Assembly (NCBI GenBank): GCA_013166835.1
Contig: JABLTI010000028.1
Coordinates: 1 to 27,523 of the forward strand
Length of the DNA stretch: 27,523 bases
Direction: 5' to 3'
Origin: Promethearchaeati archaeon
GTDB lineage: Archaea; Asgardarchaeota; Heimdallarchaeia; JABLTI01
Below are positions 22,629 through 27,456 of the stretch, one piece after another. The notes under the pieces are model-generated. The model saw only the letters and a program-made list of their open reading frames with translations, was not told where the DNA came from and did no database searches. Position numbers and translations under genes: made by a program. The stretch's first letter is position 1. Each line of letters begins with the position of its first letter.

Positions 22629-24296
22629 CTATTTTTTTGCTTTGAGTCTAATCCTTGTAACAACAGCTATAACCATGACTAAAACGAATGGAATATATGG
22701 AACAAAAGATCCAGTTTCAGTAGGAATTTCCGGAGGAACTGTTAAGTTAAGATTGAAAATTGTAACATAAGTATCAAAAAGACCACCGTATTCGTCTTGG
22801 TAAGCATCCACGGTAGGAAAGCTTGTAGAAGAAGTATAACCAGACACAATGATATTGCCATTGGAGTTAATAGCTGCTTTCTGTCCTCTATCCGCGGAGT
22901 TTCCACCTAAGTAGGAAGAATAGAGTATTGTACCATTTAATGCTACTTTCGCAACAAATGAATTTGAAGATCCACCTGGAGGTGTGGATTGATATGCTTG
23001 TTCAACAGGGAGATTTGATGAAACTGTTCTTCCAGTTATAACTAAAACATCATCCGCAACAGCTATGCCAATTATTTCGTCAATGCCTGAACCACCATAA
23101 AATGAACTGAAAACTCTCGTTTGACCATCTGATGAAAAAACGGATACAAATCCGTCTAAAGAACCACCACCGTAAGAGCTTTGGAACGCATCATTGGTTA
23201 TTGGAAAATTGTAGAGTGAATTTGTACTACCCACAAATACAATGTTGTGATTCTCATCAAAAGCAATGTCATAAGCACGATCAGCATCTGTTCCACCATA
23301 AAATGTTGAGAAAGCTAAAGAACCATTTGCGAAAAACTTTGATAAGAACACATCATATGCTCCAGTATTGTAAGAACTATCATAGGCATTTTTCGTTGGG
23401 AAACCAGTTGATGAAGTTAATCCGGTAAGTACAAGATCACCATTATAATCAAATTTTATACTGGAACTTCCATCATTACCTGTAGATCCAAGATAGGTTG
23501 AGAAAACGAGTGATTGCCCATTTGCTGAAAACAAAGTCACATAGTTGTCTACAGAACCAGCGGTTTTAGAAGCTTGATAAGCACTAACAGTGGGGAAATC
23601 AAGTGAATAAGTACTTCCGGTTATTGCAATTCTATTACTCGAGTCAAAATCAACACCATATCCCCAATCATCTCCAGTTCCACCAAAGTATGTGGAAAAT
23701 AAAAGTGAACCAGAACCACCGAATTTAGCGAGAAAGATATCAGTCGAATAAAACTCTCCACCATTATTAGTGCTTTGATAAGCACTCTGAAGGGGCAAAT
23801 TAGTTGAAGTTGTTGTACCAACTACAGCAATCTCTCCTTCAGCGTTTACTGCTACATTTGTAGCCCATTCCTCACCACTCCCACCAAAATACGTTGCGAA
23901 GAGAAGTGATTGCCCGTCTGAGCTAAGCTTGTAAACGAATGCATCAAATAATCCTCCTCCAAAAGTAGCTTGATAAGCATTAATTACAGGGAAATCTGTG
24001 GATGAACCAGTTCTCCCAACTACAATTATATTACCCGAGGAATCTATTGTCATTCCCGAATTACCTATATCTTCAGCATTCGCTCGATACTCTGTGCCAC
24101 TCCCACCGATATACGTTGAAACATTAAGATGGTCAGGTAATGTTTCATCTGAAGGATTAAGTATGTTTGAATTATCTTCAGATCCAAAATTGAAACCCAT
24201 AGTATTATTACTTCCAATTATTAGTGCAGTCATTAGTACTGTACTAAAAATGACAAAGAATGTTTTACTGCCTTTTTCCTGCTGTTTTGCATTCAA
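22629..24296 (-). CDS. Secreted SBBP-repeat (beta-propeller) cell-surface protein with C-terminal TM anchor and basic tail
   Basis: Seven repeats of about 60-65 aa (STY.GG.G.D...D..G...V.G.T.S..FP...AYQ....GG..D.FV). Start reassigned to TTG 24296 after GGTG, giving a signal peptide (KQQEKGSK TFFVIFSTVLMTALIIG). Ends PTETGSF-hydrophobic-RIRLKAKK. Confidence 0.88.
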   Translation of the reverse strand: MNAKQQEKGSKTFFVIFSTVLMTALIIGSNNTMGFNFGSEDNSNILNPSDETLPDHLNVSTYIGGSGTEYRANAEDIGNSGMTIDSSGNIIVVGRTGSSTDFPVINAYQATFGGGLFDAFVYKLSSDGQSLLFATYFGGSGEEWATNVAVNAEGEIAVVGTTTSTNLPLQSAYQSTNNGGEFYSTDIFLAKFGGSGSLLFSTYFGGTGDDWGYGVDFDSSNRIAITGSTYSLDFPTVSAYQASKTAGSVDNYVTLFSANGQSLVFSTYLGSTGNDGSSSIKFDYNGDLVLTGLTSSTGFPTKNAYDSSYNTGAYDVFLSKFFANGSLAFSTFYGGTDADRAYDIAFDENHNIVFVGSTNSLYNFPITNDAFQSSYGGGSLDGFVSVFSSDGQTRVFSSFYGGSGIDEIIGIAVADDVLVITGRTVSSNLPVEQAYQSTPPGGSSNSFVAKVALNGTILYSSYLGGNSADRGQKAAINSNGNIIVSGYTSSTSFPTVDAYQDEYGGLFDTYVTIFNLNLTVPPEIPTETGSFVPYIPFVLVMVIAVVTRIRLKAKK

Positions 24297-24403
24297 CTGC
24301 AACACCAAGCGAACGTATAGTTTGGACGATATATAAGATAAATGATAGGATATCGAAATCAAACGATAAAATTTTTGAAGAAATTCTAAAATTATATGAA
24401 AAT

Positions 24404-26185
24404 CTAATCTTTCAAGCTGCTTATTTTCCATTTCTGACTATCAAAATCAAATAAATTCTGCAATGGAACAAAATTTGACTTGTAGAATTTAATAGTATAA
24501 AATGAAGGTGTCAATCCTTCTTTTTCTAAGAAATCTTGAATTATTTTTCGTATGGGATGAGTATGAGCCACGCCAGGAAGATTGAAGATATAGCGATCGT
24601 ATATTGTATTTTGTCCCAATAAAGAAAATACACTTAATTTCTTTGTTACTAAATCAATTTTATCTTTTGAAATTTCGTCAGATGTTGGTATCTCAAAAAT
24701 AAGAACATCAGGACTTCGCTTCATTCGATTTCTCATATATAGTGAAAATGTAAGTAACTCTTTGTTTTTAGCTCGTAACTCATTTTGATAAAGTAGATCA
24801 GTTTGTGCATCAACATCAGTCATTAGGACATTATTTTCCAAATAAAATTTCTTAAATTCATTAAGTGTTACACCATATCTTGCTCTAAGTAGAAGTTTAG
24901 AAGTTATTATTGAAAGAAAGTAAAGCAAATTATAATCTAATTGTAGCGGTTTGGCTGGGGAAGGTATTTTTTGAGCTCTTTTATAGCTGTAGAAGGTATA
25001 CATCCTTAGTGAAGGATCTTTCGGATTAATCAATTTTTTAAAGACACTAAGGATTGGCTTATGGGGAATATTAGAAATTGCAAAATACCTATGTCTTTCC
25101 CTTACTAGCTGTAAAGTAAAATCACTTATTAAGTTCTTACTTTTCATTTTGCTTAGTTTGTCACTAAGTTGATCACTAATTATGTGAGGACAAATTAAAG
25201 TTGGAGAATATATTATGTTTGAATTTGAATCTGTTCCATGAAAAAGTGATTTTAGGTAAGGAATTTTAAGTAAATCTTGAGTTAATTTTTCAAAAAATCC
25301 ATTCTTGTTTAATGTAATTTTAAATAAATAGTTATGAAGATTTATCTTTTCATAATTTATGTCAGAACGCCAATATGTAGAGAAGGTTTCATTTAAAGCT
25401 TTAAAGCGTTTAGCAATTGTTTTTTGAGTTAGATCAAGTTTACGAGCAATAAAAGAGGTAGTACCTCGTTCATATCCTAATTCATGGAGAGTTTCAATTA
25501 ATTCAATTAATTTCAAATTAGTATAAAATGGCAATATTGATGAACTTTCTTCAATTGTTTTTGAGAAGGTCCACTCGGAAAATTCCTTTATTTTTCTAGA
25601 AGTTGTTTGTTTTTTATTAAATATCTCAAAAGAAATCTCAAAAACTTCAGTGAAAGGAATATTATTACTAATTAAAAGTAAAAGTAAATTATCCCAATAA
25701 TAATTACTGAGTTCAGCAATTTCTTCAGGATAGATTTTAGATCTTATAGCTGATAAGACAGGATTATCAATAGTAGTTATGTTAAATAAATCTACTAAGA
25801 GAAGAACCGTTATAATGTTGATTATTGATTCATCAACCTCTTCAATCTCATTATTCAAGAAATGAAGAAGGCATTCTTTAAGAACTATAAATGACAATAG
25901 ATAACTTCGTGTTTTAGATTGAAGATTCATAATCCAATCAGCAATTACAACTTGATCTTGGTTTCGTTTTAAACCAAAATCTACACTAATATCTTCTTTC
26001 ACTTTACCAAAAATAATAGATTTTACCGGAATTATTGGATGTCTTTTTAAAATATTTGTGAGAATATTAATAGTGAAACTAGAAACCTCGTTGATTAATT
26101 TGATTAGCTCAGATTTCTTAACAGCAGAAATATCATCTAGTAGACCTATTTTTTCTAATAGCTTTTTCTTAAATTGAGTTTTCAT
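24404..26185 (-). CDS. Large (593 aa) HTH / Lrp-AsnC-like transcriptional regulator with uncharacterised N-terminal domain
   Basis: Central HTH TTSFIARKLDLTQKTIAKRFKAL (aa ~242-264), then the AsnC-type linker INYEKINL and a beta/alpha domain. A possible second repeat begins at LQLDYNLLYFL. The C-terminal LFDFDSQKW is reminiscent of Lrp-like repeats. Confidence 0.7.
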   Translation of the reverse strand: MKTQFKKKLLEKIGLLDDISAVKKSELIKLINEVSSFTINILTNILKRHPIIPVKSIIFGKVKEDISVDFGLKRNQDQVVIADWIMNLQSKTRSYLLSFIVLKECLLHFLNNEIEEVDESIINIITVLLLVDLFNITTIDNPVLSAIRSKIYPEEIAELSNYYWDNLLLLLISNNIPFTEVFEISFEIFNKKQTTSRKIKEFSEWTFSKTIEESSSILPFYTNLKLIELIETLHELGYERGTTSFIARKLDLTQKTIAKRFKALNETFSTYWRSDINYEKINLHNYLFKITLNKNGFFEKLTQDLLKIPYLKSLFHGTDSNSNIIYSPTLICPHIISDQLSDKLSKMKSKNLISDFTLQLVRERHRYFAISNIPHKPILSVFKKLINPKDPSLRMYTFYSYKRAQKIPSPAKPLQLDYNLLYFLSIITSKLLLRARYGVTLNEFKKFYLENNVLMTDVDAQTDLLYQNELRAKNKELLTFSLYMRNRMKRSPDVLIFEIPTSDEISKDKIDLVTKKLSVFSLLGQNTIYDRYIFNLPGVAHTHPIRKIIQDFLEKEGLTPSFYTIKFYKSNFVPLQNLFDFDSQKWKISSLKD

Positions 26186-26524
26186 TAATTAATCAACTTA
26201 GATTTCTTGTTTTATATACTAATAAAGTCAAATTCATTATTTTTTAACCTTCTTTACTTAAATAAATATCTAAAGAATGTTCCTAATTCCTAGCGTGAAA
26301 GAGAGAGGATTATTGTCGCTTTTCTCTAAGAAGAATTTTTCTGGTTTTAATGCTAGAAAAACAGTTTTTTTATGTTTTAAGCAAAGGAAAAAATCAACCC
26401 TAAGATTATTTTTGCAGTATTTGAATGTATAATTTAGTGTGTTTACTCACATAACGAAAATGCTAGACGAGAAAACTGGTTAAGCATGTAAGTAAAAACC
26501 AAAAGAAATACAAGGTGCACTGAA

Positions 26525-26665
26525 TTGAAAAAAATAAACCCGAAAGTAATTGGTTTGACTATCCTTCTATTAGGTCTTTTAATAGGAGGAAGTTTATCTG
26601 TCCAGACAGGACATGGGGATCCAACATTGACCCCAAACCCACCAGAGGATGATGGTGGAGGTTAA
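26525..26665 (+). CDS. 46-aa secreted micro-peptide precursor (signal peptide plus short acidic/Pro/Gly mature peptide)
   Basis: TTG 26525 to TAA 26665 translates as MKKINPKVIGLTILLLGLLIGGSLSVQTGHGDPTLTPNPPEDDGGG. AGGTG RBS at 26513-26517 (7-nt spacer), classic n/h/c signal-peptide layout and a downstream terminator. Below the ORF-track size cutoff. Confidence 0.8.
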   Translation: MKKINPKVIGLTILLLGLLIGGSLSVQTGHGDPTLTPNPPEDDGGG

Positions 26666-26725
26666 TCTACAAGAAAATATACGTGGGTAAATTAACCAAA
26701 ACTGAGAGGGTAAAATCGATTTGCC

Positions 26726-26766
26726 CGAGGAGCATGAAAAAAGGCATGCTCCTCGTTTTATTCTTT
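26726..26766 (+). terminator. Strong intrinsic-terminator-like hairpin after the micro-peptide gene
   Basis: Perfect 11-bp GC-rich stem CGAGGAGCATG(26726-26736)/CATGCTCCTCG(26745-26755), 8-nt loop, then TTTTATTCTTT. Confidence 0.75.
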
Positions 26767-26825
26767 CCAGTAAGCACTGTAAACGATTATTCCGATAGAA
26801 AAAATATAATAGGTGTAATTCATAC

Positions 26826-27185
26826 ATGGGAAAAATCCTCCTTGTTGAAGATGATAATACTATTAGAACATTATTTAGAAAAATACTCGTTGCAAATGGG
26901 TATGAAGTTATCGAAGCTACAAACGGAGAGGAGGCCCTTAAACTTTACGAGGAGTTAAAAGAAAAACCAGAACTCATAATTCTTGATCACTTAATGCCAA
27001 AAAAGAGTGGACTAGAAGTCACTCAAGAATTACTAAAACGTTATTCACATGATAAAATCCTCATAATTACAGGTCATCCTGGCATTGAATTAGATTGTTT
27101 CCCTAATGAAACTATCAGATTGAAATTAAAACCAATTAGTGTTAATGATTTTCTCTCTGAGATTCAAAGCATGGTGCAGACTTGA
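26826..27185 (+). CDS. Stand-alone response regulator receiver (CheY-like) protein
   Basis: ILLVEDD, phospho-acceptor ILDHLMPKKSG, IITG and KP conserved. AGGTG RBS upstream. Confidence 0.92.
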   Translation: MGKILLVEDDNTIRTLFRKILVANGYEVIEATNGEEALKLYEELKEKPELIILDHLMPKKSGLEVTQELLKRYSHDKILIITGHPGIELDCFPNETIRLKLKPISVNDFLSEIQSMVQT

Positions 27186-27297: not shown

Positions 27298-27456
27298 CTA
27301 ATATCTTCTTGGTTTTCGTTTTCTGTAACAATCTTGACAGTAAACTGGTCTTTCGCCATCTGGTTTGAAGGGTACTTCAGTTTCTTGACCGCAATCTGCG
27401 CAAGTTACCTTGTGCATCTCTCTTGGTGGTCTGTCGTAGTTACCGTATCTACTCAT
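27298..27456 (-). CDS. CxxC-x17-CxxC domain small zinc-ribbon protein (52 aa)
   Basis: Manual translation MSRYGNYDRPPREMHKVTCADCGQETEVPFKPDGERPVYCQDCYRKRKPRRY, with exactly 17 residues between the CxxC pairs. GGTGA RBS at 27466-27470. Not in the ORF track. Confidence 0.93.
   Translation of the reverse strand: MSRYGNYDRPPREMHKVTCADCGQETEVPFKPDGERPVYCQDCYRKRKPRRY

Follow-up and report, generated by a model that had tools for sequence, protein, structure and literature searches.

A micro-peptide gene of Heimdall-group Asgard archaea paired with the gene of a tandem Lrp/AsnC-like protein: a candidate peptide-signalling module

The window analysed here is the whole 27,523-nt stretch of contig JABLTI010000028.1 from a Promethearchaeati archaeon (assembly GCA_013166835.1; Asgardarchaeota, Heimdallarchaeia), with a G+C content of ~33%. 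Towards its end it carries a very short ORF, and the question is whether so short a frame is a gene and, if it is, what its product does. A first-pass annotation had described it as a secreted micro-peptide and had offered three possible roles, namely a diffusible signal, a RiPP-like precursor or a membrane-tethered micro-protein. The ORF was recovered as described, with the same coordinates, the T-G-H-G motif (residues 28-31) and the acidic Pro-rich stretch ending in GGG (residues 32-46). It closes with a TAA stop codon (26663-26665, + strand) and its 46-aa translation is MKKINPKVIGLTILLLGLLIGGSLSVQTGHGDPTLTPNPPEDDGGG. No Pfam, NCBIfam or PADLOC family was found for the micro-peptide. The positions of the gene, of its parts and of the neighbouring features are given in Table 1.

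Table 1. Positions of the micro-peptide gene, the partner gene and neighbouring features in the window.
Feature	Residues	Positions	Strand	Remarks
593-aa partner gene		24404-26185	-	divergent from peptide gene
Partner Lrp/AsnC-like wHTH+RAM module 2 (predicted)	418-580	24446-24934	-	
Partner Lrp/AsnC-like wHTH+RAM module 1 (predicted)	224-400	24986-25516	-	
Partner orphan N-domain (predicted)	1-216	25538-26185	-	
Intergenic block, ~41 bp		26253-26293	.	near-invariant in 6 orthologous loci
Shine-Dalgarno-like AAGGTG		26512-26517	+	7 nt upstream of the TTG start
Micro-peptide gene		26525-26665	+	46 aa plus stop; TTG start
Peptide basic n-region	1-7	26525-26545	+	
Peptide hydrophobic core	8-22	26546-26590	+	GG at its end
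Peptide small-residue c-region	23-25	26591-26599	+	
Peptide acidic Pro/Gly-rich tail	26-46	26600-26662	+	
Codons of contacting peptide residues	30-46	26612-26662	+	predicted complex
3' element, two GGGTAAA-containing repeats		26683-26722	+	non-coding, conserved
Terminator-like 11-bp hairpin and T-run		26726-26765	+	
Stand-alone CheY-like receiver		26826-27185	+	119 aa; acidic pocket, D54, T82, K101 present

The micro-peptide ORF is a genuine conserved gene under purifying selection. When the source genome (3.56 Mb in 260 contigs, 84.75% complete) was queried with the peptide, contigs C23 and C106 proved to carry three further copies. All ORFs of 20-150 codons of this genome, 40,598 in number, were searched with an HMM derived from 27 peptide copies; it matched the window gene and its three paralogues alone, with E values of 1e-17 to 3e-22, the next ORF reaching E 0.094. 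Among 5.8 billion proteins, 152 database clusters matched the family profile at E <= 0.01; the peptides are 41-86 aa long among the 120 of these matches that were listed, and the listed clusters are named 'hypothetical protein' and labelled mostly Heimdallarchaeota or Asgard, with one Bathyarchaeia. Several public MAG records also call peptide homologues under the name 'hypothetical protein'. A dN/dS analysis across orthologues, which the first-pass annotation had proposed as a check, was performed by the Nei-Gojobori method on six orthologues of equal length and gave ratios of 0.06-0.65, below 1 in all 15 pairs. The start codon varies between TTG, ATG and GTG at one aligned position. The reading frame is open in 28 copies across 26 loci, and its amino-acid architecture is kept despite low DNA identity. 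The Shine-Dalgarno-like motif is conserved as well, related motifs (GGAGAC, GAGGTT) occupying the equivalent place in other peptide subfamilies. One could still argue from the extreme shortness of the ORF and its TTG start that it is a chance frame, or, from a conserved structured 3' element downstream of it, that it is merely a coding-looking segment of a non-coding RNA. Against both stand the dN/dS values, the open frame in all these copies together with the database clusters, the conserved ribosome-binding-like motif and an architecture that persists where the DNA has diverged, and we rate the chance of such an explanation as close to nil.

Conserved non-coding sequence lies on either side of the gene. 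An AT-rich, TATA-like sequence with a tandem TTCCTA repeat behind it makes up the upstream intergenic block, a candidate promoter/operator shared by the two divergent genes. Downstream, the 3' element is more strongly conserved than the coding sequence across eight orthologous loci, the stem of the hairpin contains three pairs with compensatory changes in orthologues, and the folding z-score of the 110-nt 3' region is -4.17. A search of positions 26100-26900 against Rfam gave no match. Two other ORFs in these regions were rejected as genes. A 91-aa frame starting from a GTG at 26683 stops after three codons in one orthologue despite conserved DNA, and a 51-aa frame at 26277-26432 is conserved in its first bases alone, which belong to the intergenic block, the remainder being rich in indels among orthologues.

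The peptide family was characterized from 135 distinct sequences. An N-terminus of the form M-K-K-[IVLM]-N-P-K, with a net charge of +3, is almost fixed, and it is followed by a hydrophobic core of ~15 residues with a conserved GG at its end, the uncharged stretch having a median length of 19 residues. The segment after the core is short and semi-conserved, frequently A-K-x-A-I-A-P, with V-Q-x-G-x-G-D-P in the type to which the window peptide belongs. The tails, in which six types can be distinguished, are variable and rich in Gly, Pro and Asp, with a median net charge of -2; the topology of the window peptide is one of an N-flank of net +3 and a tail of net -4. A class I signal has a positively charged n-region, an h-region of 7-15 residues and small residues at -3 and -1 of the c-region, and by these rules the window peptide shows class I Sec features (net charge +3, core at residues 8-22, S23 and S25). 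The N-terminal ~25 residues would therefore be read, from sequence, as a probable Sec signal peptide cleaved near residue 25; alternatively, the uncharged stretch, with its median of 19 residues, could serve as a membrane anchor.

The first-pass view of a signal-peptide-like N-terminal segment followed by a tail too short for a fold of its own was upheld. Its predicted cleavage after T-G-H-G fared less well: such a site is allowed in the subfamily of the window peptide, but family-wide a Pro stands at +1 of this site (after G31) in 88 of the 135 members. We moved the rule-fitting site to the residue aligned to S25 because the -3/-1 rule is satisfied there in 120 of the 135. Cleavage after S25 would give a product of 21 residues and cleavage after G31 one of 15. 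The likeness of the C-terminus to ubiquitin or SAMP proved as superficial as had been judged, consisting of the terminal GG alone, which is present in 74 of the 135 peptides, other members ending for example in D-T-G-[IL]-[FWY]; a modifier of this kind was rejected, since the ~21 residues after the signal segment allow no beta-grasp fold. Three other types of leader were rejected as well. In class III (type IV pilin-like) archaeal signals, a basic residue and then a Gly or Ala immediately precede the hydrophobic stretch; the window peptide has K7-V8 at this point, with no Gly or Ala at -1. A lipobox is missing from the Cys-free window peptide, any Cys occurring in only 9 of the 135 members. 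A double-glycine leader does not agree with the hydrophobic segment before the GG, such leaders being non-hydrophobic and served by an exporter with a C39 peptidase, and Peptidase_C39 was not found in the 84.75% complete source genome.

The decisive context for the peptide, overlooked in the first-pass annotation, is its 593-aa neighbour together with a recurrent receiver gene. In the source genome, each of the four peptide copies adjoins one of three paralogous large genes. Across 30 loci from 12 genomes, 28 family peptides were found in 26 loci, and the four peptide-less loci (L017, L025, L026 and L034) are each truncated by the end of the contig towards the expected place of the peptide gene. 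Three layouts occur. In the first, that of the window, the genes are divergent with a gap of ~330-375 bp; in the second, the peptide gene lies upstream of the large gene and co-directional with it, at ~90-105 bp; in the third, which accounts for 10 loci, the two genes converge and the peptide gene lies 27-39 bp past the large-gene stop. Because all three layouts retain the pair, adjacency is kept independently of layout. At one locus of the source genome (L007) and one of another genome (L018 in G002), a peptide gene stands on both sides of the large gene. When 24 large proteins were placed in a maximum-likelihood tree, the types of peptide tail and the gene layouts followed its well-supported clades. 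Several peptide/large-protein pairs are present per genome. Co-variation of tail and receptor is expected from joint duplication alone, and it is therefore no proof of specificity.

No Pfam, NCBIfam or PADLOC family was found for the 593-aa protein, and its nature was approached through a structural model. The AlphaFold2 model obtained with a 39-row alignment (mean pLDDT 88.9, pTM 0.78) consists of a helical N-domain with a small sheet, followed by two modules, each a winged HTH plus a beta-alpha-beta-beta-alpha-beta fold. The top Foldseek match in the PDB was NirDL (4ch7; E 3.4e-6, 375 columns, TM 0.55 on the target), after which came many archaeal and bacterial Lrp/AsnC regulators. The weakest matches of the partner profile point the same way, being proteins of 300-330 aa with two HTH_AsnC domains (E 1e-6 to 1e-3), and one weak match combines a NirDL-like HTH with an AsnC ligand-binding domain. 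A further weak match, to a kinase-rich protein of 2,846 aa (P0165), was set aside as spurious. On the strength of the model, the partner is predicted to be an orphan N-domain joined to tandem Lrp/AsnC-like modules.

The N-domain modelled alone reached a pLDDT of 87.8. Foldseek returned nothing significant for it (best E 0.37), a PDB sequence search with the N-domain profile gave nothing below E 0.8, and a Pfam scan of 24 N-domains revealed no family in common, 16 families being hit by a single member each. Its weak fold rows are zincin-type peptidases (abylysin, selecase, M1 aminopeptidase catalytic domains, IrrE and thermolysin). The HExxH motif is absent from the partner family, and the zincin likeness is a lead only. 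ESM Atlas searches with the peptide and the partner N-domain gave nothing but unnamed clusters, whose values of 0.75-0.79 are too low to count as a lead. The partner is taken to be cytoplasmic because it has no signal-like N-terminus and its single hydrophobic helix (121-139) is buried in the model; this helix is also non-hydrophobic in distant paralogues.

The partner family is small and narrowly distributed. A search of 1.84 billion proteins at E <= 1e-3 yielded 144 representatives, of which about 60 have full length (~570-620 aa), and a word-indexed search found 44 clusters, all of them hypothetical proteins without Pfam domains. In single-sequence searches, the partner was present in all 11 other genomes of the same family, with 2-6 matches each, some being contig-end fragments, and in none of 29 genomes from other families of the class. 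When 301 genomes of the phylum were searched with the profile, full-length partners were found in those 11, in the source genome and in one genome of another family; four more genomes gave weak, HTH-sized matches only.

A complex of peptide and partner was then considered at the level of structure prediction. The prediction passed, with an ipSAE, a measure of model confidence, of 0.65 (runs 0.65, 0.66 and 0.61), compared with 0.00 for the best of three controls. The score mark applied is reached by 58 of 80 solved complexes and by 2 of 110 mismatched pairs, rates that give a rough guide here, where our own alignments were used. Contact agreement between the runs was at least 62%, and the pLDDT of the partner in the complex was 52-53. 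To our knowledge, no complex of this type has been solved, and because of this the pass is unlikely to come from model memory. Confident contacts in the predicted complex are confined to peptide residues 30-46, with none from the signal-like segment. The C-terminal D-G-G of the peptide is predicted to be inserted between the two RAM domains of the partner: D43-G44-G45 face residues 313-328 and 364-366 of the first RAM domain and residues 494-496, 522-537 and 565-567 of the second, peptide residues 33-35 lie on partner residues 435-441, and residues 92 and 139-169 of the N-domain would also contact the peptide. In the 39-row alignment, every row has Arg or Lys at pocket position 364, Y326 is invariant and position 315 is always Phe or Tyr; position 328 is Pro in 28 of the 39 rows, and positions 313, 522, 526, 535 and 567 vary by clade. 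As a set, the 52 contact residues are no more conserved (0.482) than the protein is on average (0.480); the 15 pocket positions (0.55) are somewhat more so.

The stand-alone receiver gene downstream of the peptide gene in the window is found again elsewhere. Ten of the 30 loci have a receiver in the module or no more than 1.5 kb from it. Its place varies: it may follow the peptide gene, follow the large gene or stand between them, and one locus has two receivers. These loci all belong to a superclade with the divergent or upstream layout, and the receiver is missing from all 10 loci of the convergent clade. The source genome encodes 11 receiver domains, two of which adjoin two of its three modules; one of these module-adjacent receivers is in two pieces, at the ends of contigs C23 and C150. 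No histidine kinase gene was found among the 10 nearby ORFs of the window (Pfam) or in the ORF lists of loci L002-L004 and contigs C238 and C150. Elsewhere in the genome there are 10 proteins with HATPase_c.

We give roughly even odds (about 0.5) to the reading that the ORF encodes a pro-peptide exported by Sec and that the peptide tail serves as ligand for the cytoplasmic regulator encoded next to it, the two forming a lineage-specific pair. In such a mechanism, the N-terminal ~25 residues would direct Sec export and be removed near residue 25, and the exported tail of ~21 aa, perhaps trimmed further, would build up outside the cell. The tail might then be re-imported, for which the nine genes of Opp/Dpp-type binding proteins (SBP_bac_5) in the source genome would be available. 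Inside the cell it would bind its cognate regulator and thereby change transcription, probably including that from the divergent promoter region; the CheY-like receiver next to the pair may also participate in one superclade. Among the three roles named by the first-pass annotation, the diffusible signal is the one favoured by the strict pairing with the partner and by the predicted placement of the tail in a pocket.

It is also conceivable that peptide and neighbour never touch, the former being a membrane-anchored or secreted micro-protein that is only transcriptionally controlled by the Lrp/AsnC-type protein; it would sit N-in with its tail outside, or have an extracellular role, for instance in surface, metal or matrix interaction. 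The median of 19 uncharged residues is borderline for a transmembrane helix, the divergent layout with a conserved intergenic block is typical of a regulator and its target, and joint duplication alone would align tail type with receptor clade. However, the 10 convergent loci have no shared promoter region, since there the peptide gene runs towards the large gene and lies 27-39 bp from its stop, and they still keep the pair adjacent. The complex prediction, which passes with contacts from the tail only, and the helix-breaking GG followed by small -3/-1 residues in 120 of 135 members, as in cleaved signals, also speak against such an arrangement, which we regard as unlikely. The best structural match of the proposed regulator, NirDL, is an enzyme and not a regulator. 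This siroheme decarboxylase is an Lrp/AsnC derivative turned enzyme, and it lends some weight to a RiPP-like maturation pair, in which the large protein, as an enzyme or chaperone, would bind and modify the tail while it is still in the cytoplasm, ahead of Sec export. The predicted position of the tail in the inter-RAM cleft and the division of the peptide into a conserved N-terminal and a variable C-terminal part, reminiscent of leader and core, could be read in the same way, as could the zincin-type rows of the N-domain, not significant at a best E of 0.37.

Maturation of this kind is nevertheless distinctly unlikely in our judgement. No catalytic motif was recognised, HExxH included, and the Pfam, NCBIfam and PDB sequence searches came back empty. 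RiPP leaders are the part normally recognised by RiPP enzymes, and the hydrophobic, signal-like 'leader' here makes no confident contact with the partner; moreover, the recurrent CheY-like receiver suggests signalling. That receiver could also belong to a chain in which a membrane histidine kinase senses the tail outside the cell and passes the signal to the adjacent receiver and on to the large regulator, the tail never entering. The recurrence of the receiver close to the module (within 1.5 kb, 10 of 30 loci) in varying places, the two of 11 receiver domains beside two of three modules and the 10 HATPase_c proteins of the genome are in line with this idea. Yet a kinase gene was lacking from the own-genome loci examined, all 10 convergent-clade loci have the pair without a receiver, and the tail is predicted to contact the large protein directly, which together make extracellular sensing very improbable to us.

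The closest parallel in logic is found in the RRNPP systems of Firmicutes and their phages (Rap/Phr, NprR/NprX, PlcR/PapR, PrgX, AimR/AimP). The criteria set out for them in the excerpted text of PMC10075063 are a pro-peptide of 10-100 aa, Sec secretion (Sec/SPI) with maturation outside the cell, a receptor of 250-500 aa whose TPR repeats bind the peptide, and adjacent genes. The module has a pro-peptide within this size range (46 aa here, 41-86 aa in the family) and adjacent genes in 26 of 30 loci, the other four being cut by contig ends; Sec export would be a rule-based proposal (basic n-region, ~15-residue core, GG, -3/-1 residues in 120 of 135). As in RRNPP pairs, a small gene for a pro-peptide, here putatively of Sec type, adjoins that of a cytoplasmic receptor, here a predicted one, the active part is predicted to lie towards the C-terminus of the pro-peptide, and multiple paralogous pairs with differing peptide 'codes' occur per genome. 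Rap/Phr also works with a stand-alone receiver, Spo0F. Unlike RRNPP receptors, the partner has 593 aa rather than 250-500 and no TPR (0 Pfam families), being built instead, by prediction, of an orphan N-domain and two Lrp/AsnC modules; the host is an Asgard archaeon, and no sequence or fold homology to RRNPP proteins was found. Because its receptor is larger and lacks TPR, the peptide/partner module would be an analogue of RRNPP in logic and not a homologue or member.

The modelled partner resembles Lrp/AsnC regulators at the level of fold, with a winged HTH followed by a RAM domain (beta-alpha-beta-beta-alpha-beta), here twice in tandem, and its ligand is predicted to sit where two RAM domains meet, as the small ligands of these regulators do. 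It differs from them in carrying both modules in one chain behind a 216-residue orphan domain, in matching none of the Pfam models above threshold as a single sequence, and in that the ligand predicted for it is no free amino acid but the C-terminal end of a gene-encoded peptide. Tandem Lrp/AsnC-like modules in one chain are also seen in the siroheme decarboxylase NirDL/AhbAB (4ch7), from which the partner is set apart by an identity of 11-12%, the extra N-domain and the paired peptide gene; a Pfam scan of the 10 nearby window ORFs revealed no haem-pathway gene. Unlike in known RiPP classes, the neighbour belongs to no modifying enzyme family recognised by Pfam, NCBIfam or PADLOC.

Communication among archaea is barely known at the gene level. 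The excerpted text of PMC12240190 counts three true archaeal quorum-sensing cases, one with a carboxylated AHL and two with signals that are unknown, and names filI as the sole archaeal gene experimentally tied to a quorum-sensing pathway; none of the cases in that text consists of a gene-encoded peptide and a cognate receptor. The likeness of the module to archaeal quorum sensing, a secreted signal that alters behaviour with cell density, is hypothetical. In the passages considered of PMC12700828, archaea appear only within the reference list, and none of the papers listed in full-text searches on Asgard and archaeal peptide signalling, archaeal RRNPP systems and Lrp proteins of Heimdallarchaeia describes the family in its title or the opening of its abstract.

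A wider reading can be offered tentatively, as a possibility against which the odds stand somewhat. The module would be the first archaeal system of cell-to-cell signalling by a gene-encoded peptide, in Heimdall-group Asgard archaea; it would have arisen independently of RRNPP, with a tandem Lrp/AsnC sensor of amino acids converted to read the C-terminus of a peptide; and duplication would have produced several orthogonal peptide/receptor channels per genome, with one branch wired to a CheY-like receiver. The new aspect would be an analogue of signalling by peptide and intracellular receptor, assembled from unrelated parts in another domain of life. Lrp/AsnC is the commonest regulator family of archaea, and if this reading is true, the RAM domain of such regulators is adaptable to the reading of peptides. 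A short peptide that can be synthesised and a soluble candidate receptor would offer a directly testable entry point in the archaeal group nearest to eukaryotes, and the natural variants of peptide and receptor, with their six tail types, suit the study of how specificity evolves. For annotation, the locus carries a warning that micro-ORFs of 40-50 codons starting with TTG or GTG may be key partners of large 'hypothetical' proteins. On the far side of the module, an SBBP beta-propeller gene (22629-24431, - strand) was rejected as a module part, as it stands beside the module at no other locus; in the window it overlaps the end of the large gene.

A block near-invariant in six orthologous loci was found between the peptide gene and the divergently oriented gene for the 593-aa large protein, at loci where protein identity is just 51-89%. 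The block consists of a TATA-like part followed by TTCCTA(A/G) repeated in tandem, and is a candidate promoter or operator for the divergent pair. A second conserved element follows the peptide gene and comprises, in order, two GGGTAAA-containing repeats spaced ~24 nt apart, a hairpin in which compensatory changes are present, and a T-run. Proteins could bind at these repeats, or the repeats could form part of a longer stem; the element had no match in Rfam. Within the peptide coding region itself, the terminator scan picked out a 13-pair stem (26562-26590), which coincides with Leu/Gly-rich codons and is probably incidental.

Features adjoining the peptide gene and the large gene (window coordinates)
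Feature	Position	Strand	Details
SBBP beta-propeller-repeat protein	22629-24431	-	600 aa
Conserved intergenic block	26253-26293		~41 bp; comparison of six orthologous loci
Conserved 3' element	26683-26765		downstream of peptide stop codon
Stand-alone CheY-like receiver	26826-27185		adjoins module
Treble-clef zinc-ribbon protein	27298-27456	-	52 aa; PF23477, E 2.7e-21

The module was not confined to one peptide gene per large gene. At two loci, L007 (contig C106 of the window's own genome, G000) and L018 (genome G002), a single large gene has a peptide gene on either side, one upstream and co-directional and the other downstream and convergent, and the tails differ between the two peptides of each locus. 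Outside family f1, to which the window's genome belongs, full-length copies of the large protein were detected only in G209, a genome of family f2, which carries two (contigs C25 and C58; E 2e-221 and 2e-159). Their presence there could reflect gene transfer, misbinning or misclassification.

A stand-alone CheY-like receiver lies near the module in 10 of the 30 loci, at positions that differ among loci, and only 11 receiver domains are present in G000. One receiver homologue is split over two contig ends of this genome, C23 (2-127) and C150 (1-237), the pieces corresponding to residues 1-42 and 36-114. These contigs probably adjoin at the split homologue, in which case the receiver would sit downstream of the second G000 module.

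The start of the SBBP gene overlaps the end of the large gene by 28 nt, and the encoded protein contains an internal repeat (self-match 39%); this gene was absent next to the module in the other loci examined. The zinc-ribbon protein is 92-100% identical across three related loci (L008, L010 and L014), and a second copy with 94% identity is located on G000 contig C201.
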